From a virus (Duplodnaviria; Heunggongvirae; Uroviricota; Caudoviricetes): 64,000 nucleotides of DNA. Positions within the stretch are counted from its first letter, which is position 1; the number at the start of each line of letters is the position of its first letter. Where the stretch lies: the IMG/VR virus record IMGVR_UViG_3300042311_000626, positions 1 through 64,000 of that record. The stretch is one strand, 5' to 3'. Below the pieces are notes generated by a model. The model made no database searches. It worked only from the letters and a program-made list of their open reading frames with translations, and was not told the origin of the DNA. This document shows positions 7,322-37,048 of the stretch, one piece after another. Position numbers and translations under genes: made by a program.

Positions 7322-8056
7322 ATGCCAAAAATATTTAAAGTAGGAGGATGCGTCAGAGATGGACTCCTAGGAGTAAAAACAAAAGATATCGACTTCACAT
7401 TTGTATTAGATGATCTAAACAAGACAGTTGAAGAAGGATTCAAAGAGATGGAGCAATGGATGATAGATCAAGGATTTACAATCTTCCTATCCGTTCCAGA
7501 GATGTTTACAATCAGAGCTAAATTTCCAAGTGATCATAAATTTGCTAAATTGGATGCAGACTTTGTAATGGCTAGAAAGGAAGTTAGTTATATTGAAGGA
7601 ACAAGACGTCCAATACTAGAATTAGGAACATTGGGAGATGATTTAGTTCGTAGAGACTTTACAGTCAATGCTATGGCTGAAGATGAGGATGGTAATTTAA
7701 TTGATTTGTTTGACGGTATATGGGCTTTAGAAAGTAAGATGCTTCTCACACCTCTTGAACCAACACAAACGTTTCTAGATGATCCTTTAAGAATGATAAG
7801 AGCACTTAGATTTTCAATCACTAAAGGATTTACAATAGCACCTAAGGTTTGGGCAGCGATGTTTATTCCGACTCTAATTGATAAACTACAACAAGTAGTA
7901 AGTGGTGAGAGAATAAGAGAAGAAATTATAAAGATGATGAAAGTAGATACTGTAGCAACTCTACGATTATTAGCTGAAATTGATAAAATAGAACCTAAAT
8001 TCCTAGAAGCTGTATTTAGTGACGGAATGTGGTTAAAACCAACATTTGAACAATAA
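7322..8056 (+). CDS. CCA tRNA nucleotidyltransferase / poly(A) polymerase family protein (head domain, 244 aa)
   Basis: VGGCVRDGLLGVKTKDIDFTF (GGxVRD...DxD) and RRDFTVNAMA signature motifs. Confidence 0.75.
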   Translation: MPKIFKVGGCVRDGLLGVKTKDIDFTFVLDDLNKTVEEGFKEMEQWMIDQGFTIFLSVPEMFTIRAKFPSDHKFAKLDADFVMARKEVSYIEGTRRPILELGTLGDDLVRRDFTVNAMAEDEDGNLIDLFDGIWALESKMLLTPLEPTQTFLDDPLRMIRALRFSITKGFTIAPKVWAAMFIPTLIDKLQQVVSGERIREEIIKMMKVDTVATLRLLAEIDKIEPKFLEAVFSDGMWLKPTFEQ

Positions 8057-8709: not shown

Positions 8710-9819
8710 ATGACATTACCAATTTTGTACAAACGTTCAAACAGTAAAGAACACATCAATCAATGGCAAATTGAGGTTGAAGGAAACAAATTCAGAACAA
8801 CTACAGGATTTGTAAATATGAAAATGTTTACAGGTGATTGGACCGAATGTACTCCTAAAAATGTAGGTAAAAAGAACGCTACAACAGCGGAAGAACAAGC
8901 ATTGTTCGAAGCACAAGCACTATGGCAAAAACGTAAAGATTTAGGTTATTGGGAAGACATAAATGATTGTGATAAGAAAGTATTCTTTCAACCTATGTTA
9001 GCTCAAGACTATGACAAACGTAAGGATAAAGTACAGTTCCCAATTTTATCACAACCAAAACTAGACGGAGTAAGATGTATAGTTAAATCAGATGGTATGT
9101 GGACACGAACAGGAAAGGAAATTATATCTGCTCCTCACATATTTGAAGGACTAAAACACGTATTTGAAACACAACCTGATTTAGTATTGGATGGTGAATT
9201 ATATACTTCAAATACAGAAGTAGATTTCAACACAATCATATCATGTGTTAGAAAAACAAAACCAACACAAGCCGATTTAGATTTATCTACTCGATATATT
9301 GAGTATTGGATGTATGACATGTATGAAGGTGAAGATTTAATATATGCTTCAAGACGAGGTAAATTGTTAAGTTTATTTCTTACATATGATATATCAATTC
9401 TTTATTATAAAATTGTTGAAACAACTAATGTAATTTCATTTGAACAGATTAATCTAAAATTACAAGAATATATTGAACAAGGTTTTGAAGGTCAAATGTT
9501 AAGAGATCCAAACACACCTTATGAAAATAAACGTTCAAATGGTTTATTAAAACATAAAACATTCTTTGATGAAGAGTTTACAATAATAGATTATTCCGAA
9601 GGTATAGGTAAATTTAGTGGTAAAGTAGCAACATTAAAAGTAAATGTTAGTGGTGTAGAAGTGGATTGTACCATAAATGGAACGATGGAGTATTTAGAAG
9701 AATTATTTCAAATCAAAGACACATTAATTGGTAAACAAGCAACAGTTAAGTATTTTGAAAAAACGGTAGATGGTTCATTAAGATTTCCAAAAGTAATAGC
9801 GATACGAGATTATGAATAA
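8710..9819 (+). CDS. ATP-dependent DNA ligase with ~100-aa N-terminal extension
   Basis: Motif I KLDGVR, motif III LDGELY, motif IV EGQMLR, motif V LLKHK. Confidence 0.8.
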   Translation: MTLPILYKRSNSKEHINQWQIEVEGNKFRTTTGFVNMKMFTGDWTECTPKNVGKKNATTAEEQALFEAQALWQKRKDLGYWEDINDCDKKVFFQPMLAQDYDKRKDKVQFPILSQPKLDGVRCIVKSDGMWTRTGKEIISAPHIFEGLKHVFETQPDLVLDGELYTSNTEVDFNTIISCVRKTKPTQADLDLSTRYIEYWMYDMYEGEDLIYASRRGKLLSLFLTYDISILYYKIVETTNVISFEQINLKLQEYIEQGFEGQMLRDPNTPYENKRSNGLLKHKTFFDEEFTIIDYSEGIGKFSGKVATLKVNVSGVEVDCTINGTMEYLEELFQIKDTLIGKQATVKYFEKTVDGSLRFPKVIAIRDYE

Positions 9820-9879
9820 AAAATTACAAGAAAGCTTGCGGTACACAACATCAATACAAACATACGTATATACAAGAAT

Positions 9880-10068
9880 ATGAAACGATTATTATACAAC
9901 ATAGCATTTTGGATTGGTTATACAATCGTAATTGAAGATACTCTAATGAGTTGGGAAAAGTGGGAGATAAAAAAATACACTCACATTGTGGTATACAAGT
10001 ATTATGGTAGATTTAAACATGACAATAGCATTAAGTTAAGACGTGTGTGGGCGCTTAAAATAAGATAA
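9880..10068 (+). CDS. hypothetical protein
   Basis: 62-aa ORF; CGTATATACAA motif 5 nt upstream. Confidence 0.3.
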   Translation: MKRLLYNIAFWIGYTIVIEDTLMSWEKWEIKKYTHIVVYKYYGRFKHDNSIKLRRVWALKIR

Positions 10069-10070
10069 AC

Positions 10071-10301
10071 ATGACAGTAGCAGAAGTAATAGAAAAACTA
10101 AGCACTATTGAAAATCAAGACGCCTTAGTGATGACAAGAGGATATGAAGGAGGGTATGATGATATGGATTATGATATTATAGAAACAGATATGGTTCTAA
10201 ATGTAAATTCAGAATGGTATTATGGTAAACATGAAAGAGCAGAAAATGTATATCATGAAGATAGGGAAAAATATGAAATAGTAAAAGCAATTATACTTTA
10301 G
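10071..10301 (+). CDS. hypothetical protein
   Basis: 76-aa acidic ORF. Confidence 0.35.
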   Translation: MTVAEVIEKLSTIENQDALVMTRGYEGGYDDMDYDIIETDMVLNVNSEWYYGKHERAENVYHEDREKYEIVKAIIL

Positions 10302-10321
10302 GTTGGCTTATAGGAATTGTA

Positions 10322-10348
10322 TTCGTAATTTTATAGCATAATTTAAAA
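10322..10348 (+). promoter_or_regulatory. early promoter motif (consensus copy)
   Basis: Identical 27-mer to 8671-8697. Confidence 0.5.
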
Positions 10349-10351
10349 CAA

Positions 10352-10567
10352 ATGGTTATGACAAATTTAGACATTATTGAAAAATTTATTCAAAGTGAAA
10401 TTGATAAGAACAATTCATCTAATGAATATATTTTAGCATTAAATGAGTGTGCAACATTAGAGGACTTAATTTATGAAGTTGATATGTGGAAATCACCAAT
10501 TATAATTGAAAAATATGGAAATGTGGAAAATTATATTTTGATGAGTTTAGATAATTTAAAACAATAA
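10352..10567 (+). CDS. hypothetical protein
   Basis: ORF after early motif; second ATG at 10358 fits the conserved ggttATG context better. Confidence 0.35.
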   Translation: MVMTNLDIIEKFIQSEIDKNNSSNEYILALNECATLEDLIYEVDMWKSPIIIEKYGNVENYILMSLDNLKQ

Positions 10568-10572
10568 AGGTT

Positions 10573-10767
10573 ATGGAAGTAAAAATTAACATCCCAGAAG
10601 GAATCATTCGCACATGTACAAAATGTGGTTGGAATGAAGAACAAACAAGAAAGGTATTTGTTGAGTACTTACAAGAGGTTACTAATCATGTATACAATCA
10701 CTTTGAAATAGGTTTTGATAATTGGATAAATGACGAAGATACTCAGGAATTTTTAGATAACTTATAA
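10573..10767 (+). CDS. hypothetical protein
   Basis: 64-aa ORF. Confidence 0.35.
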   Translation: MEVKINIPEGIIRTCTKCGWNEEQTRKVFVEYLQEVTNHVYNHFEIGFDNWINDEDTQEFLDNL

Positions 10768-10772
10768 AACAA

Positions 10773-10994
10773 ATGGTTATGAGAACAAAACGATCAGAAT
10801 TAGTAGAAGGTAAAAAATATTTCATGAATGGTGAAAGAGACGTCATAGGAGTATTTAAAGGTAGAGATGAAGATTTAAACTCAATTTTCTTTGATTGTGG
10901 TGAACAAAACAAATATTTCACTTCATTATATAGAGAAGGTCTTGTAATGTTTTGGAGTGATGATGATTATGAAGGGTTTGTAGAAGTAAAATAA
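10773..10994 (+). CDS. hypothetical protein
   Basis: 73-aa ORF; alternative start 10779. Confidence 0.35.
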   Translation: MVMRTKRSELVEGKKYFMNGERDVIGVFKGRDEDLNSIFFDCGEQNKYFTSLYREGLVMFWSDDDYEGFVEVK

Positions 10995-10999
10995 GCGTT

Positions 11000-11224
11000 A
11001 TGAAAAGATTAGTCACAATACAAGATGGAGTAATAGGAGGGGTGGAGAAAGAGCTTATAGAGAAATTGCTCCCTCAATTAATAGGATCATTTAGACAACG
11101 TAAAGAATACTTTGAATACTATTTTAATGAAACGGAAGTTGAAATCACCTTAGATGATATTGAGCGTTTATCTAAAGAATTTACTATAGAAATAAATTGG
11201 AGTGAATTAGAAATTTTCATTTAA
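11000..11224 (+). CDS. hypothetical protein
   Basis: 74-aa ORF. Confidence 0.35.
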   Translation: MKRLVTIQDGVIGGVEKELIEKLLPQLIGSFRQRKEYFEYYFNETEVEITLDDIERLSKEFTIEINWSELEIFI

Positions 11225-11235
11225 TAATAAAAGTT

Positions 11236-11601
11236 ATGGCAACACCAAGTAGAATAGGAATCGAGAACGAAAACGGATCAATAACATCAATTTACTGTCA
11301 TTGGGATGGTTATACAGAAGGTGTAGGTGCAATGTTAAAAGAGCATTATTTGAGCACTCAAAAAGTAAGAATGCTACTTAATTTAGGTGATATTAGTATT
11401 TTAGGAGAACAGGTAGCAACTATGGATGAACATACTTTTGATAATCCAAAGCAAGGTGTAACAGTGGCTTATCATAGAGACAGAGGTGAGGAAAAGAATG
11501 AGGCGAGAACGGATGTTTCAATTGAACAATTTAAAAATCGTTTAAGTGATTGTTATGGTTATGTTTATACTAAAGGTGGAAATTGGTTAACAGTAAGATA
11601 A
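11236..11601 (+). CDS. hypothetical protein
   Basis: 121-aa ORF. Confidence 0.4.
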   Translation: MATPSRIGIENENGSITSIYCHWDGYTEGVGAMLKEHYLSTQKVRMLLNLGDISILGEQVATMDEHTFDNPKQGVTVAYHRDRGEEKNEARTDVSIEQFKNRLSDCYGYVYTKGGNWLTVR

Positions 11602-11606
11602 GTGAT

Positions 11607-11894
11607 ATGAAACAGACAGCAGTAGAATGGTTAGCGAATGAGCTATATGAAAAATTTGAAATGAAAGGTGATGGTGCTTTGTTTAATGACTTGTTAAATC
11701 AAGCCAATAAAATGTTTGAGCAACAGATTATTGATGCCTTTGATAATGGTGTAGAAGATGATGGAATTATTGATAATGCAGAACAATACTATAATGAAAC
11801 ATTTGGTAAATCAACTCCGTGGTATGATGAAGATAAGACAACAGAAAGAATGAATATAATAGGACAAAATGGAAATAATGGTGAACACTATTAA
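11607..11894 (+). CDS. hypothetical acidic protein
   Basis: ORF in track from a TTG at 11583; first ATG at 11607 (MKQTAVEW...). Confidence 0.35.
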   Translation: MKQTAVEWLANELYEKFEMKGDGALFNDLLNQANKMFEQQIIDAFDNGVEDDGIIDNAEQYYNETFGKSTPWYDEDKTTERMNIIGQNGNNGEHY

Positions 11895-11928
11895 ATCCAA
11901 AGCACCAAATACATAATCCAGCTAAAAT

Positions 11929-11986
11929 AAAACGTACGACGGAAGAAACGAAACGTACGACGGAATAGAATAATAACGTACGGGCG
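11929..11986 (+). repeat. direct repeats AAACGTACGACGG (x2) plus AACGTACGGGCG
   Basis: Exact 13-mer at 11929 and 11951; related copy 11975; further copies at 12732 (direct) and 13243 (inverted). Confidence 0.7.
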
Positions 11987-12347
11987 AAAGGGCGATTACT
12001 AAATAATAGGAGCTGGGTGCTTCGGGTATGAAATATCGCATTTAAACGCATTGTTTTTTTACCACGGCATTATGTGATTATGGGGAGGTAATGCAAAATT
12101 ACGCGTTTTTTTGCGCAAATAATCGCGATTTTTTTGTTGCTTAAAGGAATAGGTGAGGATGGAAAACAAGGGTTAAGGGTGGAAAACATTACAATATTTT
12201 TTTTGTTGCTTAAAGTTTTTGTACTTAACATGTGGAACGAATGGAGATAATGTGTGATGGAGTTTTGTGACAAGGGAAAAGGTCCCGCCATGCCACGCCC
12301 CGTTTCTCCACTTTCGAAACGTATATACAAAACATAACATAACTACT

Positions 12348-12545
12348 ATGCTATATTACATAAACATTTACGTATTCATTGGCGCCATTGTGTCCGTATT
12401 GGCCATATTAATGAATAATTATTTTGTTAAGTACGACGACGGGACTCCTTTAACCAATAAAGACGTCGTTATAATAATTTTTTTCTGGCCAATATTTCTT
12501 TTGTTCTTGTTTTATTACTTTTTTGTTAAAGATTGGGATAACTAA
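12348..12545 (+). CDS. small membrane protein (65 aa)
   Basis: ATG inside track ORF 12267..12545 where AT-rich codon usage resumes; 2 TM helices. Confidence 0.3.
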   Translation: MLYYINIYVFIGAIVSVLAILMNNYFVKYDDGTPLTNKDVVIIIFFWPIFLLFLFYYFFVKDWDN

Positions 12546-12586
12546 GAATTTTTTTGTACATTCATATAAATAAAAAATTTAAAATT

Positions 12587-12733
12587 ATGATTGTACCTTT
12601 TTGGATTCAAGGCTTAGCATTTGGTGTTTATTATGTTCCGGACGACGACGGAGTAGATTACGACGACGAGACACATATGGTCCAATTGGCGTTAGGTTTT
12701 TTTGGTATATCGTTTATGTGGTGGAACGACTAA
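12587..12733 (+). CDS. small membrane protein (48 aa) with acidic loop
   Basis: MIVPFWIQGLAFGVYYVPDDDGVDYDDE...FFGISFMWW; below track cutoff. Confidence 0.25.
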   Translation: MIVPFWIQGLAFGVYYVPDDDGVDYDDETHMVQLALGFFGISFMWWND

Positions 12734-12852
12734 AACGTACGACGACGAAAGTTTTTTGTCTTTTTTTGCGATAATATTTGGTTGCGTGGTTTTTTGTTAT
12801 TAATTTTATGCCAGAGTTAAAAACATAAACATTAACATTAAAAATCAAGGTT

Positions 12853-13185
12853 ATGACGCGTACAGAAGTATTAGCAAAAGTAAAAGAGTTAGGTATCAAA
12901 ACAGAAAGACCAGCTCATCAGATGAAAACAGAAGCATTAGTTGCTTTAATTCACAAAACAGTTGTGATTGAAGATCACAAAGCACGTGGACGTAAAATCA
13001 ATCCAACGAGCGCTAGACAACAAAGATTAGCTACCCGAGCTATGTTGTTAGAAAATGGTCCAATTCAAAAAGGACGTAAACCGAACTTAACCAGTGCCAG
13101 ACAACAAAGATTGGCTGCATGGGAAGCTAGAAAGGCTGCCGGTGAGGTAATAAAACGAGGCCGTCCAGCAATGGTGGTTGCGTAA
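12853..13185 (+). CDS. HeH/Rho-N (SAP-like) domain DNA-binding protein with tandem basic repeats
   Basis: N-terminal LAKVKELGIKT...MKTEALVALI fits the Rho-N/HeH signature; two GRKxNxTSARQQRLA repeats; strong terminator follows. Confidence 0.5.
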   Translation: MTRTEVLAKVKELGIKTERPAHQMKTEALVALIHKTVVIEDHKARGRKINPTSARQQRLATRAMLLENGPIQKGRKPNLTSARQQRLAAWEARKAAGEVIKRGRPAMVVA

Positions 13186-13207
13186 TTTAATTGTTAAACT
13201 AGGAACT

Positions 13208-13237
13208 GACCCGACAGAAATGTCGGGTCTTTTTTTT
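13208..13237 (+). terminator. rho-independent terminator
   Basis: gacccgaca-gaaa-tgtcgggtc 9-bp stem plus T8. Confidence 0.75.
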
Positions 13238-13428
13238 CCTCCGTCGTACGTTTTATTATTTGGGGACAACTATTTCTAATATCCAAGTTGGTTGTTAATT
13301 TTTTTATTCGTACCTTTATGGGGGGGTCCGTTTTTTTTTTATAAAAACGTTACAACATTTTTTGTTTATCATTTGGATATTGGTTTTTTTGTTTGTATAT
13401 TTACGACGTTAATTAAAACAATAGAGTT

Positions 13429-13680
13429 ATGAGAGTACAAATTAAATCCATCTTCGAGCAAATTGCAGAGCAAGTATTTAAAATGACTGATGCAACTAAA
13501 GCTAAAACGTTCATTACTGAATTCGTTAATGAAAAGAATATTAACGACGACGACAAAAGAACGATCCTAAACAACATAGAGAACCTTAAATCGATTGCCC
13601 AGATCCAGAAATACATCTGTAACTCACTTCTTCAGTATGAGGGGCTAGGTGTTGGTGCTAGAAAGGATCCAAATGAGTGA
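13429..13680 (+). CDS. hypothetical protein; 3' end runs into a GC-rich segment
   Basis: 83-aa ORF; last ~15 codons lie in the GC-rich island 13635-13765. Confidence 0.35.
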   Translation: MRVQIKSIFEQIAEQVFKMTDATKAKTFITEFVNEKNINDDDKRTILNNIENLKSIAQIQKYICNSLLQYEGLGVGARKDPNE

Positions 13681-13948
13681 GCTGGATCATCTGGCCCAGT
13701 GGGAGCAGTTCCTCTGGCTTCAGGGGCTCGATCCGGGGCCTGAAATTGGGAACACCATTTCGTTAGTATGTATGTCGGAAGACATTAAACATTATAATTA
13801 TGAAGACTATCCAAGTAACACTTCAAGAGCGATGGGCTGCTTCTAGGCACCAGATCCACAAGACAAAGAAAACATATACCCGTAAGGATAAACACAAAAA
13901 CAAGAGTCGTAAAGACTCTTCATTTGTCTTTGGTTACCAGAATTATGT

Positions 13949-13975
13949 GTCGTAATTTTATAGCATAGTTAAAAA
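13949..13975 (+). promoter_or_regulatory. early promoter motif
   Basis: gtCGTAATTTTATAGCATAGTTAAAAA upstream of ATG 13993. Confidence 0.45.
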
Positions 13976-13992
13976 CATTAAAAATAAAAGTT

Positions 13993-14238
13993 ATGGCTTA
14001 TAGAGAAACATTTAGAATGAATCAAAGAGATTTTGATGAAGAAAATGAAGAAACAATTAATGACATTAGAAGTTATTTAGTTTACAATTACAATCATGTA
14101 AGTTCAGACCAACTATCAGATGGTTTTATTCTGGAGTTTATGTCCAGAGATTACTTAGTAAGGTTGCCGTTTGAGAGAAAGATGGATTGCCTTTATGATC
14201 ACATTTTGGCTCAAGGTTTATGTGATGTAGAAGAATAG
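13993..14238 (+). CDS. hypothetical protein
   Basis: 81-aa ORF between early motif and terminator. Confidence 0.4.
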   Translation: MAYRETFRMNQRDFDEENEETINDIRSYLVYNYNHVSSDQLSDGFILEFMSRDYLVRLPFERKMDCLYDHILAQGLCDVEE

Positions 14239-14241
14239 ATT

Positions 14242-14262
14242 AAGCGCTTAGGCGCTTTTTTT
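14242..14262 (+). terminator. rho-independent terminator
   Basis: aagcgc-ttag-gcgctt plus T7. Confidence 0.5.
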
Positions 14263-14290
14263 GTCTTTCACTAGGATACCTAAAAAATTT

Positions 14291-14318
14291 TTCGTACCTT
14301 TATACCAAATTTAAATTA
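14291..14318 (+). promoter_or_regulatory. early promoter motif, degenerate
   Basis: TTCGTACCTTTATACCAAATTTAAATTA upstream of the GC-rich ORF. Confidence 0.4.
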
Positions 14319-14326
14319 AAAACAAA

Positions 14327-14887
14327 ATGAAAACATTAGTAATACACCCTAACGATCGATCAACTGATTTTCTTAAGCCGATCTATAACGAGCTAGACGA
14401 TGTTACTCTGGTGACTGGCAACTGGACACGTGGGGAAATAATAGAGGGCATCCAGGCACACGATCAAGTAATGATGATGGGACATGGGAGCCCAGGTGGA
14501 TTGTTTGCTATGGGGCAGTTTTGGCCTCAAGACGTCCTTAGTGCCTATATTATAGGGGCTGACATGGTTGAGGCGTTGAGCCAGAAGGACAACAACATTT
14601 TTATCTGGTGTAATGCCGATCAATTTGTTACTAGACACATGCTGAAGGGGTTTTACACTGGGATGTTTATCTCTGAGACGGGCGAGGCTGCTTATTGTGG
14701 ATTGCCTGGTACACCTCAAGACATGGTGGATGAATCGAACCACGGGTTTGTTAAAATACTTGGCGATGCACTTCAGGGCACCAGAGACACTAGTGTTCTA
14801 TTTGAGCAGACTAGCAACACATACAGCCTAATAGCCGACATTAATCCAGTAGCTAAATACAATCATAATAGACTTTATTTAAGATAG
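14327..14887 (+). CDS. hypothetical protein, compositionally foreign
   Basis: 186-aa ORF with clearly higher GC than neighbours; GHGSPGG and hydrophobic-strand-Cys (IFIWCNAD) elements. Confidence 0.5.
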   Translation: MKTLVIHPNDRSTDFLKPIYNELDDVTLVTGNWTRGEIIEGIQAHDQVMMMGHGSPGGLFAMGQFWPQDVLSAYIIGADMVEALSQKDNNIFIWCNADQFVTRHMLKGFYTGMFISETGEAAYCGLPGTPQDMVDESNHGFVKILGDALQGTRDTSVLFEQTSNTYSLIADINPVAKYNHNRLYLR

Positions 14888-14908
14888 ATTTGGTTGCCTA
14901 AAATATTA

Positions 14909-14937
14909 TTCGTACTTTTATATCAAAGTTTAACAAT
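14909..14937 (+). promoter_or_regulatory. early promoter motif, degenerate
   Basis: TTCGTACTTTTATATCAAAGTTTAACAA. Confidence 0.4.
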
Positions 14938-14952
14938 TAAAATATTCTTATT

Positions 14953-15252
14953 ATGAGTGAAAAAATTAACAGCGACTGTTTATTCCGCCTTGAGGCGAAA
15001 GGTGAAGACATTAGTGCTTCAGTTGAAGGTAAAGCTAGAGATATAGCAGAATTACTTGCTAACGCAGCTATAAATTCAGAAGAAATAAACATGGTTTTAA
15101 AATTTGCTATGTTAATGTTGGCTCAACATGAAATGAACCAAGACGAAGACGAAGACGAAGACCGAATCAGCGAAGAAAGATTCCAAGCTGGTAAAGAAGC
15201 TGCTGTTGACTTAGCTCAGGCATTATTCCCTCTTAAAATGGAGGAAGCATAA
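14953..15252 (+). CDS. acidic hypothetical protein
   Basis: 99 aa with QDEDEDEDR run; flanked by motif and terminator. Confidence 0.45.
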   Translation: MSEKINSDCLFRLEAKGEDISASVEGKARDIAELLANAAINSEEINMVLKFAMLMLAQHEMNQDEDEDEDRISEERFQAGKEAAVDLAQALFPLKMEEA

Positions 15253-15287
15253 GATTTCTCATTATTTATTGTTTTTAATTAGTGAAT

Positions 15288-15315
15288 TGACTCATCAGAA
15301 ATGGTGAGTCTTTTC
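15288..15315 (+). terminator. rho-independent terminator
   Basis: tgactcatc-agaaat-ggtgagtc plus TTTT. Confidence 0.5.
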
Positions 15316-15326
15316 TATTTATCATC

Positions 15327-15545
15327 ATGAAAAAGTTTATATTATATTTGATCACATGGGTAGCAGGCAATCTGTCTATTCCATTCTGGATGGTAGGGCA
15401 CGTCCACCTGACAACTAATGTGTATGAGGACATACATGAGATAATTGCCTCATTCGGGATGAACATTATAGTGGCCCTTGGGTTCTGGCTAGAATGGAAA
15501 AACTACGATGCGGCTACTAAGCCAAATAACGATAAAGACAATTAA
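15327..15545 (+). CDS. small membrane protein
   Basis: 72 aa, 2 TM helices. Confidence 0.4.
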   Translation: MKKFILYLITWVAGNLSIPFWMVGHVHLTTNVYEDIHEIIASFGMNIIVALGFWLEWKNYDAATKPNNDKDN

Positions 15546-15571
15546 ATAATACTTGGTTATACGGTTTATAG

Positions 15572-15598
15572 TTTGTAATTTTATAGCATAATTTAAAA
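15572..15598 (+). promoter_or_regulatory. early promoter motif
   Basis: TTTGTAATTTTATAGCATAATTTAAAA, 11 nt before ATG 15610. Confidence 0.5.
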
Positions 15599-15609
15599 CA
15601 ACAAATAAA

Positions 15610-15777
15610 ATGAGCACATTAAAATTTACAGACGGAGAAACATTTGATTTATCAGGTGAATTAAGAGCCGAAGAGCGTTATGATGGATGGTACGTGTTAG
15701 GTGAAAACCGAATGATACCTGTTAACGACGAGTTTGATGCTTTAAACACAATAGATAAACTTAACGCCCTTAAATAA
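15610..15777 (+). CDS. hypothetical protein (55 aa)
   Basis: ORF 11 nt downstream of early motif 15572-15598; below cutoff. Confidence 0.35.
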   Translation: MSTLKFTDGETFDLSGELRAEERYDGWYVLGENRMIPVNDEFDALNTIDKLNALK

Positions 15778-15778
15778 G

Positions 15779-15964
15779 ATGAATAAGTTACTACTTAGAT
15801 ATAAAAATGAAAACAACAAGCAAGTAGACGTTGTAATGGATCCCAGAGAGCTATCCCATATGGAGTTTATTAAGGGGAACAGAACGTTATATAAGGTATA
15901 TGATGCTGAAGATGAGTTTAATGTTGAATTAGAACGTCTAACTAAATTAAGTAACAGTAATTAA
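15779..15964 (+). CDS. hypothetical protein
   Basis: 61-aa ORF. Confidence 0.35.
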   Translation: MNKLLLRYKNENNKQVDVVMDPRELSHMEFIKGNRTLYKVYDAEDEFNVELERLTKLSNSN

Positions 15965-15991
15965 AAGTAGACGTGTATACGCTACTTACCG

Positions 15992-16018
15992 TTCGTAATT
16001 TTATAGCATAGTTTAACA
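15992..16018 (+). promoter_or_regulatory. early promoter motif
   Basis: TTCGTAATTTTATAGCATAGTTTAACA. Confidence 0.5.
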
Positions 16019-16034
16019 ATTAAAAACATATAAA

Positions 16035-16220
16035 ATGAAAACATTAGACATCTTAATTAAAGTATTATTAGTTACCTTAATGTTATTAAGTGTAATACGA
16101 ATGTTCTTCTACCCTAGTACATTAGAACATTTTGCAATGTGTTGGTTCTTGCTTATGGCATCTGGTGTTGGTGCATTAGCTTACTACAAACAAAGCACCA
16201 AATGGAACCTAAACAAATAA
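16035..16220 (+). CDS. small membrane protein
   Basis: 61 aa, 2 TM helices. Confidence 0.35.
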   Translation: MKTLDILIKVLLVTLMLLSVIRMFFYPSTLEHFAMCWFLLMASGVGALAYYKQSTKWNLNK

Positions 16221-16363
16221 AAGCAATGAATACGATAACACAGACGATAGAGCAAGATGGATTCAGCTGGTTCGAATATAATACAGGATCGATCACATTA
16301 ATCGAATTTTCATTGAGTGAGCTAGTAAAGCGTATAGTAGCCATTAACCCGACGCTAAATTAA
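16202..16363 (+). CDS. hypothetical protein (53 aa)
   Basis: First ATG of the hydrophilic part of track ORF 16139..16363; 19-nt overlap in a different frame. Confidence 0.3.
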   Translation: MEPKQIKAMNTITQTIEQDGFSWFEYNTGSITLIEFSLSELVKRIVAINPTLN

Positions 16364-16439
16364 GCATGTACGGTAGATACTAAACAAACAACAACAACTA
16401 ACATGAGGCGGCCAAAAGGTCGCCTTCCTTAATCTAAAT

Positions 16440-16690
16440 GCATGTGTGCGCGCGCGTGACAAAAAAAGCGGGCAGGGCTCTGGCTTCAGGCGGGTCTGGC
16501 GTGTGTGACAAAAAAGAACACTCTCCTTCAATCTATCGATCCGCTAGCGCTGCGCGCGCGGAGCGACAGCGAAGTGGGCCCACGGTAATTGCGGTCCATC
16601 GACGATGCGACAAAAACGCGCCCGAAGGCCCCGGCTTTACAACAAGACAACAAAATTCACCCCGCGCCCCCCGTATATACAAATATATTG
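16440..16690 (+). other. GC-rich non-coding island (~60% GC in a ~31% GC genome)
   Basis: GTGACAAAAAA / GCGACAAAAAC repeats, (CG)n runs, ends in CGTATATACAA; track ORFs here look spurious. Confidence 0.6.
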
Positions 16691-16835
16691 CAAAATCCAT
16701 TATAACCCATTCGATATAAAATCCAAGACCCCGAAATCTCTCTCTTTAACGATCTTTTTCCCACTTCAAAGCGTATATACGAGAGGTTGGAAACAAGAAA
16801 AAACATTCGTATATTTAGACTTAAATTAAAAAGTT

Positions 16836-16979
16836 ATGATAATATACATGGATAAAACCATTGAGTTATTAGGTAAACTAGACCCCAAGGGAACCCAGGC
16901 CTTAATCGACTCAGGTGAAGTTAAATACTTAGAAGAAAAAACTGCTTATTTAGTAATTAAAGATAAAGAAGATGAGTAA
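16836..16979 (+). CDS. hypothetical protein (47 aa)
   Basis: aaaagttATG context; stop overlaps next start. Confidence 0.25.
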   Translation: MIIYMDKTIELLGKLDPKGTQALIDSGEVKYLEEKTAYLVIKDKEDE

Positions 16980-17976
16980 AATTGAAGAATTAAAACAGCA
17001 CAATCCTTATTACGGAAAATCAGCCATCGATATAATGCATTGGCTTTTTGATAAACCCAAATACGTCGAGCTAGCCGTTTCATTGTTTAAAAACGCAGAA
17101 AACGCGCGTACTTACCATAATGATGTTATTGAGATATTAGCAGATTGGGAAATACCTCAGGAAAAAATAGATGCTCTATCTATCTACGAATTACACTTTA
17201 TATACGTTTTCTTAGATTCAGTAGGTAGAGAAAATATTACTAATCTACTTAAATTTGCCGAATATAACGAGCGAAAATTAATTGTTCGAAATGATATTTC
17301 CACGTATAAGAATTTTGATGAATTGGAGAATCAAATAAATCTAGCAGAGATAAAAATAATGGGTAAAGAATTACAATCCCAAACCCAAATCCTACATGAT
17401 ACGGATGAATGGTTGGTTTTAAAACCATTATCATTCGAAGCATCTTTAAAATATGGTGCCTCTACTAAGTGGTGTACCGCCATGAAGAATGACCCCGAGT
17501 ATTTTATTCGTTATTCTAAACGTGGAATTGTGATTTATTGTATAAATCGCTCCACGGGTGAAAAAATAGCCGCATTTAAGAATCTTAATACTGATTATGA
17601 GTATGAAACATCATTCTGGGATGCTAAAGATATTCGTGTAGATTCTATGGATACTAATCTTCCTGAACGTATTTTAATTCTTATACGTAGTGAGTTTACT
17701 AATACTAAATTAACTAATTGGGAATTATTTTCAGATGAATATAAAGCTCAGTATCTTTCAAATACAACTATGACAACAAATACATGGCATGATGAACCAA
17801 ACGTAGCACCAAATCAGGGTGGTTTAGGATTAGCCATTCGTAACGCTATTACGTATGATGAAGACATTAATGTTGAAGAATTAGTAGAAAGGCAAATGGA
17901 AGAACGAGTAGTAGCTTGTAATACTGCTCCACCCCCATTTATGGGTGACATGGTTGAACAAGCTTGGAGAGACTAA
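16972..17976 (+). CDS. hypothetical protein (334 aa)
   Basis: Long ORF first after the GC-rich island; no recognisable motif. Confidence 0.5.
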   Translation: MSKIEELKQHNPYYGKSAIDIMHWLFDKPKYVELAVSLFKNAENARTYHNDVIEILADWEIPQEKIDALSIYELHFIYVFLDSVGRENITNLLKFAEYNERKLIVRNDISTYKNFDELENQINLAEIKIMGKELQSQTQILHDTDEWLVLKPLSFEASLKYGASTKWCTAMKNDPEYFIRYSKRGIVIYCINRSTGEKIAAFKNLNTDYEYETSFWDAKDIRVDSMDTNLPERILILIRSEFTNTKLTNWELFSDEYKAQYLSNTTMTTNTWHDEPNVAPNQGGLGLAIRNAITYDEDINVEELVERQMEERVVACNTAPPPFMGDMVEQAWRD

Positions 17977-17980
17977 TAGT

Positions 17981-18454
17981 ATGGGAGAATTTAAACACAT
18001 AACATTAGACGAAGCTAAATCGGATTATTATCCTAAACCCGAAGGAGTAAATTGTTTTTACTCTGATGCTTATACTTTAACACCTGATCCTAATGATCCA
18101 ACTAATGATTATGTACATTATTGGGTAAAGAATAATAAATTTAATGCTTCCTTATCATTTAACGAAGGATACATTTATATTTTGGAGAATAAAGGTCAAC
18201 CTGGTGTGTTGAAAATTGGATATACGGATAGGACGCCACAGGAGAGAGTCCGAGAGATTAACGGGGCAACAGGTGTTATAACACCTTGGTACATAGTTAA
18301 CGCATTCGCATGTAGAGCGCCTTTACAAATTGAATCTTTGATACATAAGAAACTTAAACCATTTCATGTTAATAAAGAAGGATTTGCTGTAACTATACCC
18401 TATGCTGAGGAAACAATTGCTGGTGTTATTTCCGATAATAATGCAAGTATTTAG
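17981..18454 (+). CDS. T5orf172/MUG113-type GIY-YIG-superfamily domain protein
   Basis: GYIYILENKGQPGVLKIGYTDRTPQERVREIN matches the T5orf172 core (YxYxL...KIGxT...R); ATG at 17981 preferred over track start 17945. Confidence 0.5.
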   Translation: MGEFKHITLDEAKSDYYPKPEGVNCFYSDAYTLTPDPNDPTNDYVHYWVKNNKFNASLSFNEGYIYILENKGQPGVLKIGYTDRTPQERVREINGATGVITPWYIVNAFACRAPLQIESLIHKKLKPFHVNKEGFAVTIPYAEETIAGVISDNNASI

Positions 18455-18494
18455 TAATACTAATATATTTATACCTAAATTAATACAACCACAC

Positions 18495-18758
18495 ATGGCT
18501 GAATATTTATTACAAGACAAAGACAAAGCAGCATTTATTAATAAAATGAATAAAGTATTATCTCAATTACAACCAGGATTGGGTGTGGATAATACTAGTT
18601 TTGTTGATGTACCTGAAAATAAAGATGATGATAAATGCATTTTTGTAACAGGTGATCCTGTAGAGGAGAAAGTGTTAGATCAACTTATTGATCAAAAGAC
18701 TTTTAATTTTAGAGTTAAGAAAATTAGTTTAAAAGAAATATTACAATCAATAAAATAA
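18495..18758 (+). CDS. hypothetical protein
   Basis: MAEYLLQDKDK...; in-frame internal ATG of track ORF 18402..18758. Confidence 0.35.
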   Translation: MAEYLLQDKDKAAFINKMNKVLSQLQPGLGVDNTSFVDVPENKDDDKCIFVTGDPVEEKVLDQLIDQKTFNFRVKKISLKEILQSIK

Positions 18759-18764
18759 ATAACA

Positions 18765-19361
18765 ATGAAAAAACAATTTATTACAGAGGCAGCTCGCCTT
18801 CAAAAACTAGCAGGTATTATCAATGAATCTCAATATAGAGAATTGAGTGAAAACCCCGATTTAAAGAAATATGATGGGCCAACTAAAATTTTTAATGGTA
18901 TACCTCATACATGGTTAGGTAATGGATATTTCCCCTCAGACCAAGGAGGTATAGATGCATTAAAAGCTTCATTTGTACAAAGTGAAAAGGATAAAGTTGA
19001 TAAAATACTTAAACAACAATTAGCAGGTAAAAGAGGAATTAAAGATAACAGTAAAGTAAAATATTTTATAGCTAATCCTAATTATGATCCTGCTCAGGAT
19101 GATTATGATACTGATAATGATGACCATAAATATGAGATTAACATACAAGGTATAGTAGATGCTATAAAAAAATATGCTGCTCAAAACAATTTAAAAATTA
19201 ATCCTGAGAGTTTAGCATATTATATAGAGGGTCTTGAAGGTTTTGGTTATGATTATGGTTCTGGGGATTTTGGAGACTTTGAAAGAATGGGAGGGTATAA
19301 TAGAGAATTAACTCCTATGGAATTATATAGCGAATTTTTGTCTATTACTTATGATCTTTAA
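18765..19361 (+). CDS. hypothetical protein (198 aa)
   Basis: ORF followed by strong terminator. Confidence 0.45.
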   Translation: MKKQFITEAARLQKLAGIINESQYRELSENPDLKKYDGPTKIFNGIPHTWLGNGYFPSDQGGIDALKASFVQSEKDKVDKILKQQLAGKRGIKDNSKVKYFIANPNYDPAQDDYDTDNDDHKYEINIQGIVDAIKKYAAQNNLKINPESLAYYIEGLEGFGYDYGSGDFGDFERMGGYNRELTPMELYSEFLSITYDL

Positions 19362-19393
19362 TCTTAAAAATTAATTAAATCTTAAAAATATGA

Positions 19394-19420
19394 CCCGCCC
19401 CTAAAAAGGCGGGTTTTTTT
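19394..19420 (+). terminator. rho-independent terminator
   Basis: cccgcc-cctaaaaa-ggcggg plus T7. Confidence 0.7.
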
Positions 19421-19507
19421 GTCCTTCACCATCTTATATATATGTATCTATTGATAGCGGTATGAAATGCATTACTTTTAAAGAAAACTTGGCTACCGCC
19501 TTCCCCA

Positions 19508-19540
19508 TTCGTATAATACATTATAACTATAAAATTTAAA
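19508..19540 (+). promoter_or_regulatory. early promoter motif, degenerate
   Basis: TTCGTATAATACATTATAACTATAAAATTTAAA before ATG 19545. Confidence 0.35.
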
Positions 19541-19544
19541 CAAG

Positions 19545-19730
19545 ATGAAATACAAAACACAAGCCCTTAAGAAAATTGAGAAAATTGAGCACAAAGTTGC
19601 TGCTTTAGAAAGTGCTATTAGCCGTAATGAAGACAGAAGTGTTATCGCTGGTGCCTTTAGAGACATGAGAGAAGCTGTAGCAAGTTTAAGAGATACTATC
19701 TCTATTGAAAACGACGAAATGAATTATTAA
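19545..19730 (+). CDS. hypothetical coiled-coil protein
   Basis: 61-aa ORF after a degenerate early motif. Confidence 0.4.
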   Translation: MKYKTQALKKIEKIEHKVAALESAISRNEDRSVIAGAFRDMREAVASLRDTISIENDEMNY

Positions 19731-19731
19731 T

Positions 19732-20013
19732 ATGACAACATTTGTAATTATTTTAATTAGTATCGTCCTTATTTTAGGATATATTTCTTACAATTTATTT
19801 AAAAAAGTTGAACAATTAGAAAGGATAGTAGATTCTCAAGAACAATACATATCTAAATTTTCTAATACAGTAGATTTTACTAATAAACGATTAGGAGAAA
19901 TTGATGAAAAAGGAACATTTCAATCCGATGACGAAATAGGATGGTTTTTTGAGAGTGTAAAGACATTACAGAGTGAATTAGATGATTTTAATTTGAATGG
20001 AGTTAGAAGATAA
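19732..20013 (+). CDS. membrane-anchored hypothetical protein
   Basis: N-terminal TM helix, 93 aa. Confidence 0.4.
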   Translation: MTTFVIILISIVLILGYISYNLFKKVEQLERIVDSQEQYISKFSNTVDFTNKRLGEIDEKGTFQSDDEIGWFFESVKTLQSELDDFNLNGVRR

Positions 20014-20752
20014 TGTAATAACGGTCGAGCTTACCAAGTCTGGTAAGCCCCGTAAACGTAAACCCAAAACATCTCACACATACTTTACTGAAGACACTCA
20101 GAATGCTATTGTAGAATATGTAGCATCTCAGGATCAAAAATTTAGAGATAAAGTTTATCGTGAACGTATTGAGTATGGATTTTTTAAATTGACTCAAAAC
20201 ATCATTCACACTTTTAAATTTTACTATACTGATGGTGAATCTGTTGAAGATGTACAACAAGAAGTAATTGCTTTTTTACTTGAAAAACTTAAATTATACA
20301 AACCTGCTAAAGGTAAGGCATATTCCTATTTTGGAACTATAGCTAAACGTTATTTAATTTTAAAGAATAAGAAAAACTATCAAAAACTTCAAGATAAAGG
20401 AGATTTATTAGAGATTGAAGAAGATAAAACTATACGAGAAGAAATAATAAATGACCATTATGGACAAGACTATAGTGTAAGTGAATTTATGTCTTTATAT
20501 ACTCGTTATGTAGATAAAAATCTTCATAAATTGTTTCCTAAAGAAATAGATGCTAAAACAGCAGATGCCGTAGTTGAATTATTCCGTAAATGTGAATCAT
20601 TGGATATATTTAACAAAAAAGCATTATACATCTATATTCGTGAAATGATAGACGTAGATACTCCTCAAATTACTAAAATTATTAAAAAATTAAAAGTTAT
20701 ATACATTGATTTATATAATAGATATTATGAAGATAATTACATCAATGTGTAA
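19997..20752 (+). CDS. putative late-transcription sigma factor (T4 gp55-like, sigma-70 region-2-like only)
   Basis: ESVEDVQQEVIAFLLEKLKLYKPAKGKAYSYFGTIAKRYLILKNKKN parallels T4 gp55 and sigma region 2; sits just upstream of the late module. Confidence 0.5.
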   Translation: MELEDNVITVELTKSGKPRKRKPKTSHTYFTEDTQNAIVEYVASQDQKFRDKVYRERIEYGFFKLTQNIIHTFKFYYTDGESVEDVQQEVIAFLLEKLKLYKPAKGKAYSYFGTIAKRYLILKNKKNYQKLQDKGDLLEIEEDKTIREEIINDHYGQDYSVSEFMSLYTRYVDKNLHKLFPKEIDAKTADAVVELFRKCESLDIFNKKALYIYIREMIDVDTPQITKIIKKLKVIYIDLYNRYYEDNYINV

Positions 20753-20767
20753 TTTTTGTTAATTTTT

Positions 20768-20776
20768 ATATTTATA
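20768..20776 (+). promoter_or_regulatory. late-type motif ATATTTATA(A)
   Basis: 15 nt upstream of first late gene; recurrent in late intergenic regions. Confidence 0.4.
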
Positions 20777-20791
20777 ATAAAATAAATTTAT

Positions 20792-21148
20792 ATGGATTTT
20801 GATAAAACTATATGGGGTAATAAAAAATTCTCCGATTTGTTAAAAGATATTTATGCCAATTCTAAAGAAAAGGAAAAACAAATCAAAGAATTAATAGGTA
20901 CTCTAAAACCATTTATTACAGATAACCATTCTGCTCTTACTATAGTTCCATTAATTGCAAATTACCTTAACATTAGTGTTAAGAATGATGAGCAACTAAT
21001 TAAATTAGCTAGTATAGTTCAACGTGCTGCTTCTTTAGGTGAAGGAGATAGCATTGGTGGTTTTATATTAAGTGAAGCCGAAAAAGAACAACTATTTTCC
21101 GCCGTAAATGAAATAGGAAATGAAGTAGAAGGACCTTCTAAAGAATAA
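20792..21148 (+). CDS. hypothetical protein (first gene with late-type upstream motif)
   Basis: 118-aa ORF, ATATTTATA 15 nt upstream. Confidence 0.45.
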   Translation: MDFDKTIWGNKKFSDLLKDIYANSKEKEKQIKELIGTLKPFITDNHSALTIVPLIANYLNISVKNDEQLIKLASIVQRAASLGEGDSIGGFILSEAEKEQLFSAVNEIGNEVEGPSKE

Positions 21149-21151
21149 AAC

Positions 21152-23658: not shown

Positions 23659-23669
23659 TATTTATTGAC

Positions 23670-26259: not shown

Positions 26260-26266
26260 CAACTTT

Positions 26267-26275
26267 ATATTTATA
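26267..26275 (+). promoter_or_regulatory. late-type motif ATATTTATAA
   Basis: 17 nt upstream of ATG 26293. Confidence 0.4.
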
Positions 26276-26292
26276 ATAAACAAATAACATAG

Positions 26293-37025: not shown

Positions 37026-37048
37026 AAATATTTAATATAAAATAATTT

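Follow-up and report, generated by a model that had tools for sequence, protein, structure and literature searches.

The 64-kb stretch of DNA analysed here, which we refer to as the window, carries the palindromic core GTATATAC only four times, at sites 1 to 4 (Table 1), where it is embedded in CGTATATACAA at sites 1 to 3 and in CGTATATACGA at site 4, always on the + strand. The coordinates and sequences of these sites in the initial annotation are exact, and the palindrome that it placed next to site 2, TTTCGAAA, does abut that site. Its description of the motif as lying right at the 5' ends of small genes holds for sites 1 and 2, but sites 3 and 4 stand 155 and 55 nt before the next gene. 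For comparison, we used 80 related uncultured phages (T4-like, Flavobacteriia), hereafter the relatives, cited individually by L numbers. Homology between the window and L082 stops precisely at the end of site 1 (9875). The counterpart of site 2 is CGTATATACGA in L081 and TGTATATACAA in L082, and homologous sites are present in L153, L165 and L173. Sites 3 and 4 form a tandem pair in island 3 that was found in 34 distinct relative sequences, 87-153 nt apart and without helical phasing; in an alignment of 19 relatives, TATATAC is invariant at site 3 and GTATATAC is invariant at site 4. The early promoter that follows site 4 is absent from the corresponding place in L161 and others, where the motif leads directly into the gene. 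The degenerate copy further downstream is the counterpart of a GTATATAC-GTATTTATTGA element of the relatives, which lies about 20 nt past a terminator and upstream of the operon with the sigma-like gene.

Table 1. Motif sites of the window and their neighbouring features
Feature	Position	Strand	Remarks
Site-1 cassette, upstream part AAAGCTTGCGGTACACAACATCAATACAAACATA	9820..9864	+	G-poor, CA-rich
Site 1, CGTATATACAA	9865..9875	+	ATG 9880 begins 4 nt downstream; identical in L081 and L082
62-aa gene	9880..10068	+	Directly 3' of site 1
C-rich, G-poor tract and TTTCGAAA	12285..12319	+	Directly 5' of site 2
Site 2, CGTATATACAA	12320..12330	+	3' end of non-coding island 1; 17 nt to ATG 12348
65-aa predicted membrane protein gene	12348..12545	+	3' of site 2; ortholog in L082
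Terminator-like hairpin GGCGGCC aaaa GGTCGCC, then TTCCTT	16407..16430	+	Opens island 3; kept in L081
Site 3, CGTATATACAA	16672..16682	+	Upstream partner of conserved tandem pair, island 3
G-poor spacer, sites 3 to 4	16683..16771	+	89 nt here
Site 4, CGTATATACGA	16772..16782	+	10-bp perfect palindrome CGTATATACG; 6 nt 5' of early-promoter -33 element
Sigma-A-type early promoter TTGG, 19 nt, TATATTTA	16787..16817	+	Between site 4 and ATG 16836
47-aa gene	16836..16979	+	First of cluster 3' of sites 3 and 4
Next gene of the cluster	16972-17976		
T5orf172 gene	17981-18454		
Degenerate copy, ATATATAT then GTATCTATTGA	19436..19454	+	

Positional analysis found the motif not equally frequent in coding DNA: all four GTATATAC copies are intergenic and fall within 6.9 kb, while intergenic DNA makes up 7.35% of the window (P ~3e-5). 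The relatives, whose sigma-like protein is only 54-97% identical, contain about 15 independent site classes, and at orthologous sites the core is kept while the flanks drift (identity outside the motifs averages 59%, pairwise, for the island-3 pair). Their copies are unevenly distributed, with 158 in the 382 kb upstream of the sigma-like gene, where GTATATAC is 15- to 25-fold enriched, 18 in the 649 kb downstream and, around the terminase genes, 2 in 736 kb against 11-20 expected. This upstream bias and the scarcity near terminase genes imply that the motif is avoided where a stray signal would do harm. Intergenic placement, conservation of the core at orthologous sites and the skewed family distribution together make the motif non-random, and these sequence comparisons show it to be real and under selection. 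On the same comparative grounds, YGTATATACR is a dedicated cis-acting regulatory signal of the phage lineage, situated at the heads of gene clusters. Members of this lineage are T4-like Flavobacteriia myoviruses, which rely on the host's RNA polymerase together with a phage sigma-like factor. The initial annotation had suggested either a distinct promoter class, perhaps a middle one, or an operator; of this, a dedicated signal distinct from the early and late classes has held up, and promoter and operator are weighed against each other below.

A family-wide logo of the 15 site classes gives the consensus C-GTATATAC-R (YGTATATACR), behind a G-poor, pyrimidine-rich tract. The C at -1 is mirrored by G/A at +9, so the extended motif is symmetric, and perfect CGTATATACG or TGTATATACA palindromes occur at site 4 and in several relatives. 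Positions past -1 and +9 carry almost zero information, and the flanks outside the 10 bp are asymmetric. Between -13 and -19, a C/T-rich stretch of seven positions, G reaches at most 4% at six of them and 14% at the remaining one, -18; the upstream sequences of the site classes are unlike one another except in base composition. A purine follows the core in 79% of cases, which fits an initiating nucleotide. YGTATATACR itself has not previously been described; the kind of element is already known.

The arrangement of the copies is highly variable. Stand-alone copies lie mostly 3-27 nt before an ATG, in sense orientation throughout and within G-poor, unstructured leaders, and the other settings are tandems with early or late promoters, pairs and portable cassettes of about 50 nt. 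Among orthologs alone the distance to the ATG varies from -2 to 27 nt, and larger gaps, with 42-217 nt to the nearest start codon, are seen at sites 3 and 4, in class D, in L101 and in others. The core ends 3 nt from the ATG in L095, L089 and some class F sites, and overlaps it in L087/L132; class F copies stand 3-6 nt before a late-gene ATG, within the end of the upstream gene. The spacing from motif to -7 box in the relatives is 24, 27 or 29 nt, and about 95 nt in class D, whereas in class E the copy follows a late motif by 4 nt and covers the place where transcription is expected to start, and the copies of site 4 and L144/L161 abut a -33 element. L106 has three copies 24-26 bp apart, and many copies have no other promoter ahead of the next ATG. 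Variable promoter spacing and unphased pairs are what independently acting elements would show, unlike operator-promoter pairs. The site-1 cassette (about 50 nt plus the motif) recurs in L082, L144, L148 and L161 with unrelated flanking genes on both sides, and one pair of adjacent genes occurs both with and without an intervening 34-nt cassette. No target-site duplications or terminal repeats were found around the cassettes.

Several known classes of element were compared with the motif. The phage's own early promoters are of the Bacteroidetes sigma-A type (TTG-N16-19-TAnnTTTA), with the TTG carried in the window and in immuto, a related phage. The Bacteroidetes primary sigma (sigma-ABfr) recognizes -33 TTTG and -7 TAHHTTTG, with near-invariant T-8, T-7, T-6 and G-5 (PMC6847099). 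The motif is also an AT-rich box starting with TA near gene starts, and the phage early promoters open with the same CGTA (TTCG-TAnnTTTA), but it has A, C and R for T-7, T-6 and G-5. A sigma-A promoter was rejected, as the core TATATAC(R) has A and C for two of the three T residues and so lacks the -7 TTT, and G is nearly absent where the -33 TTG should stand (about 16-19 nt upstream of the -7 box, by the spacing of the phage's own early promoters). The late motif ATATTTATA, defined by a position 13-25 nt ahead of structural-gene start codons, has 12 copies in the window, and those checked directly precede late genes; in immuto, too, several late genes have a TATTTATA-type motif ahead of them. 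GTATATAC was not assigned to this class: it differs from ATATTTATA at 2-3 of 8 positions and is absent upstream of structural genes in the window. T4 middle promoters consist of a MotA box, (a/t)(a/t)TGCTT(t/c)A, near -30 and a sigma-70 -10 element, and the middle mode employs the phage-encoded activator MotA and the co-activator AsiA. Like them, the motif would define a third class beside host-type early and phage-sigma late promoters, is dispersed over the early region, in many cases in tandem with an early promoter, and would serve gene clusters that include the late-sigma-factor one. Unlike them, it has neither a MotA box (none appears in the logo upstream of the motif) nor a sigma-70 -10 element, and the Bacteroidota host has a different primary sigma. 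MotA and AsiA had no Pfam or PHROGs match among about 50 proteins of the window, which covers part of the genome.

PeSL cassettes of T4-like phages combine a terminator stem-loop with a host-type early promoter (PMC2839356, PMC4122927). The motif cassettes resemble them as short conserved regulatory elements in hyperplastic regions, at indel or gene-swap breakpoints between close relatives, as seen in the end of homology at 9875, the gain or loss of the 34-nt cassette and the changing neighbours of the site-1 cassette. They are not PeSL composites, having neither stem-loop nor sigma-A elements and sharing only GTATATAC behind a G-poor tract; the PeSL-like elements of the window are the phage's TTCGTAATTTTATAGC promoters. 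GntR/HutC dre operators have a GTnTAnAC core, some predicted sites containing GTATATAC itself, within a 16-20-bp palindrome with conserved outer positions such as TGGT...ACCA (PMC5110562). GTATATAC matches that core, but the outer positions are not conserved here and no GntR-type domain was found in the scanned window proteins, so a full dre operator was rejected. The Bacteroidetes LexA-like SOS operator is a GGA-N5-TCC or CTAA-N5-TTAG palindrome (PMC8565304), neither of which GTATATAC fits. The phiKZ-type early promoter TATATTAC, which is read by the virion multisubunit RNA polymerase of jumbo phages (PMC7058600), is likewise a very short AT-rich motif ending in AC, and both would be phage-specific start signals, but the likeness does not go beyond sequence. 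As to a phage-encoded RNA polymerase, T7-like or phiKZ-like, no gene for one was detected in the window, nor does the annotation of immuto show any within the 150 kb viewed of its 160-kb genome.

The best explanation, which we put forward tentatively, is that YGTATATACR may be the core element by which a third, middle-like class of promoters is recognized. Such promoters would lie at the head of small-gene clusters in the variable early region and initiate transcription there, or re-initiate it. The TATATAC block would be read by the host core polymerase under the direction of a phage factor or of an alternative sigma, presumably with the aid of the G-free pyrimidine tract 13-23 nt upstream. 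Transcripts would begin at or a few nucleotides past the conserved purine and have very short leaders. We propose that, because it acts autonomously, such an element could stand alone, sit in tandem with early or late promoters, be duplicated and move about in cassettes of about 35-55 nt. The variable spacing, the stand-alone copies, the post-terminator copy before the sigma operon and the portability would favour an autonomous promoter, whereas the symmetry of YGTATATACR and the copies that overlap the ATG or end 3 nt before it speak more for a bound operator or for a signal read in RNA. In T4, middle transcription serves the late sigma gene, to which the motif copy ahead of the relatives' sigma-like operon is a parallel. 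In Flavobacterium johnsoniae, the -7 element is separated from the start site by 4-5 nt (PMC6847099), and if this spacing is applied to the copies nearest to the ATG, their transcripts would start inside the gene. At these copies, either transcription starts within the motif or the motif has another function. A symmetric extended motif is as expected of a dimeric DNA-binding protein rather than of a promoter. No factor able to recognize the motif was identified in the window, where the sole sigma-like protein is a marginal Pfam match (24.9 bits against a cut-off of 24) and most plausibly serves the ATATTTATA class.

The main alternative, possible but doubtful, is that YGTATATACR would be the operator of a dimeric sequence-specific repressor or activator, phage- or host-encoded, that adjusts the activity of nearby promoters or prevents read-through, for instance so that early gene clusters are silenced or properly timed. 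The degenerate 10-bp palindrome with mirrored preferences at -1 and +9, the arrays (the island-3 pair and the three copies of L106), the class E copy over an expected start site, the copies against -33 elements and the GTnTAnAC-type core shared with the inside of dre operators (PMC5110562) all point to such a protein, and copies 3 nt or less from the ATG pose it no difficulty. Yet many copies have no nearby promoter to regulate, and where promoters are near, the motif has no constant place: it stands at about -42 to -47, at about -95 or around +1, its spacing shifts by half helical turns (24 versus 29 nt) and the pairs are unphased; the asymmetry of the flanks also argues against an operator. 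No HTH or GntR-type gene was found among the roughly 50 scanned window proteins. The product of 12853-13185, put forward in the initial annotation as a candidate binder, looks like an AT-hook-type protein, and the binding of such proteins is not sequence-specific.

We consider it improbable that the motif would act in RNA, with GUAUAUAC in short G-poor early mRNA leaders being read by a phage endoribonuclease or translational repressor as a switch-off signal. If true, this signal would be the functional counterpart of T4 RegB/RegA, evolved for hosts without Shine-Dalgarno sequences. A related reading, likewise improbable, is a promoter class that would yield leaderless mRNAs, or mRNAs with 1-5-nt leaders, in Bacteroidota. 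The sense-only, ATG-proximal copies in unstructured leaders and the class F copies before late-gene starts are consistent with such a role, as is the avoidance of the motif in late regions, where RegB sites are avoided in T4. It agrees poorly with the copies 42-217 nt from start codons, with the ATG distance that varies even across orthologs and with the -1/+9 symmetry, which indicates recognition of double-stranded DNA. A structured non-coding RNA was rejected, since there was no Rfam match and no conserved secondary structure with covariation: island 3 has a fold z-score of -1.15, the 19 aligned sequences yield a single predicted pairing, the trivial one that joins the two palindromic copies, and the hairpin upstream of site 2 has weak support.

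A role in DNA transactions, as a replication-origin element or as the site of a recombinase or homing-type nuclease that would shuffle cassettes of the variable region, appears very unlikely. Motif copies close two conserved, unusually GC-rich non-coding islands, the corresponding island of immuto contains ACCCGT repeat arrays with a spacing of about 11 bp that flank one GTATATAC, and the window has a T5orf172 (GIY-YIG-like) gene about 1.2 kb further downstream, with similar genes in L161 and immuto. However, an origin does not fit a motif with roughly 15 dispersed site classes, most of them just ahead of genes, since these are too numerous and too widely spread, and the cassettes lack the duplications and repeats at their ends. 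Homology between relatives does break exactly at the motif and cassettes are gained and lost, but homologous recombination gives breakpoints at conserved regulatory motifs, as for PeSL cassettes (PMC2839356, PMC4122927), and would be expected to do so at any conserved motif, so that a dedicated enzyme is unneeded.

The initial annotation had judged the recurrence to be far above chance because fewer than 0.1 copies were expected. The figure is numerically right, with 0.03-0.05 expected per strand in the window for a pre-specified 11-mer, but this rarity is insufficient: Markov simulations of 64-kb sequences yield means of 15 (order 1) to 34 (order 3) different 11-mers that recur to a comparable degree (at least 3 occurrences, expectation below 0.1), and the real window contains 221. 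Nor is the count of the GTATATAC 8-mer in the window significant, since its 4 copies stand against an expectation of 1.95 and 13 of 100 shuffles give at least that number. Although equally rare triple 11-mers are thus common in random sequence and the core by itself is not enriched within the window, chance recurrence of a functionless AT-rich word is refuted by the comparative data, with every window copy intergenic, dozens of diverged relatives sharing an invariant core at their orthologous sites, and GTATATAC depleted outside the region upstream of the sigma-like gene.

The initial annotation had drawn attention to an 11-mer, CGTATATACAA, at three places and a 9-mer copy at a fourth, where the sequence reads CGTATATACGA, and all four positions proved exact (see the table). 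The 8-mer core of these sites 1–4, GTATATAC, has no further copy in the 64-kb window, and all four sites fall within 6.9 kb. The accompanying argument from rarity holds for the expected 11-mer count (0.03–0.05 per strand, <0.1) but failed a look-elsewhere test: in simulations of 64 kb with matching composition, 15–34 different 11-mers have at least three copies at an expectation <0.1, so the statistic proves little, and the core is not enriched over the whole window. As for the frequency of the motif in coding regions, four of four copies are intergenic, where intergenic DNA makes up 7.35% of the window (P ~3e-5).

Conservation was examined in related phages. Sites 1–4 are all kept in locus L081 (ligase 95% identical), as CGTATATACAA, CGTATATACGA, TGTATATACAA and CGTATATACAA respectively, and sites 1 and 2 are present in L082 (ligase 83% identical). 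In 80 relatives' loci fetched by anchoring on the sigma-like gene, whose product is 54–97% identical to that of the window, GTATATAC has 158 copies in 382 kb upstream of this gene and 18 copies in 649 kb downstream, the latter mostly one conserved intergenic class; near the terminase genes of 80 relatives there are 2 copies in 736 kb versus 11–20 expected. Clustering of the sites gives ~15 independent orthologous site classes. Conservation of the motif spans a large clade of aquatic phages known only from uncultured sequences. The tandem pair formed by sites 3 and 4 was found in 34 distinct sequences; in a 19-sequence alignment of the paired sites, no motif column varies save for the opening base of site 3, which is G or A, and pairwise identity in the other columns averages 59%. 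Chance recurrence is ruled out on comparative grounds; intergenic placement, retention of the core at orthologous sites and a strongly skewed family-wide distribution make the motif non-random. BLAST of the surrounding non-coding islands against cultured phages gave no match, and when viral contigs were screened with CCCCRAAMTCTCTCTCTTT, a block of island 3, the only one recovered was a contig already known.

Positions of the motif sites, putative promoters and candidate factor genes (window coordinates unless relatives are named)
Feature	Position	Strand	Details
Site 1	9865		CGTATATACAA; stand-alone; core end 6 nt before ATG
Site 2	12320		CGTATATACAA; stand-alone; core end 19 nt before ATG
Site 3	16672		CGTATATACAA
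Site 4	16772		CGTATATACGA
Class C (relatives)			stand-alone; 18 nt before ATG
'MKQLFKH' gene (relatives)			stand-alone; motif -2, 3, 8, 9 or 25 nt before ATG
Class F (relatives)			stand-alone; 3–6 nt before ATG
Putative early-type promoters	2696, 4462, 6660, 8672, 10323, 12797, 13305, 13396, 13950, 14291, 14909, ~15572, ~15992, 16806, 19500, 51000, 53093
ATATTTATA copies	18465, 20768, 26267, 32668, 40424, 43265, 48307, 50231, 53318, 54513, 56128, 58010
Sigma-like gene	19997–20752	+	Pfam Sigma70_r2, marginal
110-aa product	12853–13185	+	helix-rich N-terminus resembling Rho-N/HeH folds

A logo in which each site class was given equal weight has TATATAC as its most constant part, C in 52% at position -1 and a purine in 79% at +9, directly after the core. 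Because -1 and +9 are mirror images, the element can be written as YGTATATACR, a degenerate palindrome of 10 bp. It is preceded by an A-rich stretch (-10 to -4) and a pyrimidine-rich tract (-13 to -23); at all but one of the seven positions between -13 and -19, G makes up ≤4%, compared with 14.5% in intergenic DNA. A structured RNA or known RNA family was rejected, as Rfam gave no matches, RNA folding of island 3 is not unusually stable (z = -1.15) and sites 3 and 4 do not covary in the 19-sequence alignment. DNA looping between paired sites was rejected as well, their distances of 87–153 nt lacking helical periodicity, and so was a small RNA running from site 3 to site 4, a stretch with neither conserved structure nor terminator.

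All genes of the window lie on the + strand and include those for thymidylate synthase, an ATP-dependent DNA ligase (8710–9819), baseplate wedge proteins, a large terminase and a T4-type portal. Flavobacterium phage vB_FspM_immuto has a terminase 58% identical to the one encoded here, hundreds of related uncultured contigs occur in the viral collection, G+C is ~30% (36% between 12 and 18 kb), and neither tRNA genes nor Rfam families (at gathering or permissive thresholds) were found in the window. The window can therefore be assigned to a T4-like myovirus, a distant one, that infects Flavobacteriia (Bacteroidota). Many of its small genes have TTG(G)-N16-19-TTCG-TAnnTTTA-TAGCATAATTTAAAAC upstream, often with a hairpin ahead of it (PeSL-like), and immuto has the same class, very regularly at 17600–26300 of its locus (L113). 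These elements, which we read as early promoters, match the Bacteroidetes primary-sigma promoter (-33 TTTG / -7 TAHHTTTG, start 4–5 nt downstream; PMC6847099). The 12 copies of ATATTTATA in the window, where checked, lie 13–25 nt before the start codon of a structural or packaging gene; this word is probably a late promoter, read with the help of the sigma-like protein. A TATTTATA-type motif stands 5' of several immuto late genes. The reverse complement of TATTTATA is the T4 word TATAAATA, but here it is TATTTATA that is found on the sense strand. GTATATAC belongs to neither class: a variant host sigma-A promoter was rejected because the -7 box TTT is missing and no G is tolerated where the -33 TTG would stand, and a variant late promoter because the word is a different one, absent from the structural-gene leaders of the window.

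The contexts of the motif are diverse. Stand-alone copies lie 3–27 nt before ATG with no other promoter; others lie just 5' of an early promoter, 24, 27 or 29 nt from its -7 box (site 4 and loci L144, L161, L151 and L165). In class D, the motif follows a terminator by ~20 nt, upstream of the operon containing the sigma-like gene and ~95 nt upstream of the expected start of an early promoter, and its window counterpart is a degenerate copy only (ATATATAT, 19436–19443). Class E copies stand 4 nt past a late-type motif, paired copies are 87–153 nt apart without helical phasing, and L106 has a triplet spaced at 24–26 bp. In the variable region, the motif also marks the points at which gene cassettes have been exchanged. 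Homology of the window with L082 stops precisely where site 1 ends; a site-1 cassette of ~50 nt has unrelated genes on both sides in L082, L144, L148 and L161; and a 34-nt cassette (C-rich tract plus motif) between orthologous gene pairs is present in L135 and absent from L133 and L134. The portability resembles that of the PeSL cassettes of T4-like phages (PMC2839356, PMC4122927), but stem-loop and host-type promoter are lacking. As a separate observation, the relatives' ortholog of gene 18497–18758 (start MAEYLLQDKDKAAF) has a late-type motif plus GTATATAC in its leader, and the window gene has the late-type motif only (18465).

YGTATATACR belongs to a familiar kind of element, the phage-specific signals for transcription or regulation, of which it is a new example; no description was found in the literature, where the word itself matched only unrelated primers and dre-site examples. 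From sequence patterns, we tentatively favour, at somewhat short of an even chance, a role as the core element of a third type of promoter, resembling the middle type. This is because the element appears to act autonomously (alone, stacked at arbitrary spacing, past terminators, duplicated or mobile as a cassette), because it is excluded from late regions, and because T4 transcribes its late sigma gene in the middle mode. The promoter reading is weakened by copies no more than 3 nt from ATG, by the symmetry of the motif and by the lack of a factor among the proteins scanned: Pfam and PHROGs scans of ~50 window proteins gave only a marginal sigma-70 region 2 and T5orf172 (17981–18454), and the sigma-like protein matched no solved structure. 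All three points fit the main rival, an operator of a dimeric regulator, which we consider less likely than the promoter. An RNA-level signal of the RegB/RegA kind, which accounts for copies near ATG and for avoidance in late genes, is improbable, since it leaves unexplained both the DNA-type symmetry and the copies whose nearest start codon is 42–217 nt away. A replication origin or recombination site is likewise improbable: two conserved GC-rich islands end with the motif, and immuto's corresponding island has repeat arrays, but the dispersed copies are too many for an origin. A LexA/SOS box was rejected, as the motif differs from the Bacteroidetes GGA-N5-TCC and CTAA-N5-TTAG (PMC8565304), and full membership among LexA boxes, GntR/HutC dre operators or phiKZ-type promoters is likewise lacking.

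T4-like Flavobacteriia phages are recurrent in aquatic metagenomes; to our knowledge, almost nothing is known about the timing of their gene expression. Bacteroidota have an unusual primary sigma factor and lack Shine-Dalgarno sequences. If the middle-type promoter reading is true, a phage factor must redirect the Bacteroidota polymerase, and the motif could serve directly as bait for it and help to annotate transcription units in uncultured phage genomes. The signal map of the lineage has three parts, namely early TTG/TAnnTTTA, late ATATTTATA and the new YGTATATACR with its ~15 conserved site classes.

Several observations concern the neighbourhood of the sites. The 110-aa product, without Pfam or PHROG match, carries a GRKxNxxSARQQRLA repeat twice and a C-terminal, AT-hook-like RGRP, and is probably a DNA-binding protein of little sequence specificity. 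AAAACGTACGACGG recurs past stop codons (11926–11953, 13230–13257; also 11931, 11952 and 12734), and a pair of its copies, each 28 nt long and 89% complementary to the other, makes up inverted repeats. These bracket a possibly mobile or swappable 1.3-kb module that holds island 1 with site 2, the gene for the 110-aa product and two genes for small membrane proteins. A basic 51-aa gene (13800–13955, MKTIQVTLQERWAAS...) appears, on side-by-side reading, to have an immuto counterpart (L113 17229–17378, gp147), and its surroundings are highly variable despite this apparent conservation. The non-coding core of island 1 (12020–12200) is better conserved than the adjoining genes in L081 and L082 and has internal repeats (GGATGGAAAACA and GGGTGGAAAACA; TTTTTTGTTGCTTAAAG twice; CGCATTTAAACGCATT); an origin or a protein-binding array are possibilities, and similar TGGAAAA repeats occur in the L084 and immuto islands. 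Island 3 includes ~230 nt of very GC-rich non-coding DNA (16440–16670) in a phage of 30% G+C, with a block, GGGCCCACGGTAATTGCGGTCCATCGACG, kept in L081, L161 and L084, and GTGACAAAAAA twice. Island ORFs were discounted because of frame-breaking indels in close relatives, and that at 16438–16719 is probably spurious. In immuto, two ACCCGT repeat arrays (L113 16315–16425 and 16735–16895, spacing ~11 bp) flank a non-coding segment with one GTATATAC; they are iteron-like, a candidate replication origin or protein-binding array. Elsewhere in the window, which lacks tRNA genes, there are two nucleotidyltransferase-type genes (3827–4435, 7322–8056), one of them resembling a poly(A) polymerase or CCA-adding enzyme with an RNA-binding domain. 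Dense short repeats, among them AGTATAACACC and CCAAGTGTAAC with as many as 8 copies apiece, lie at 35350–37500 within the large late genes 34410–37025 and 37049–37789, overlapped by a long antisense ORF (35246–36172); these genes probably encode a repetitive fibre or collagen-like structural protein.
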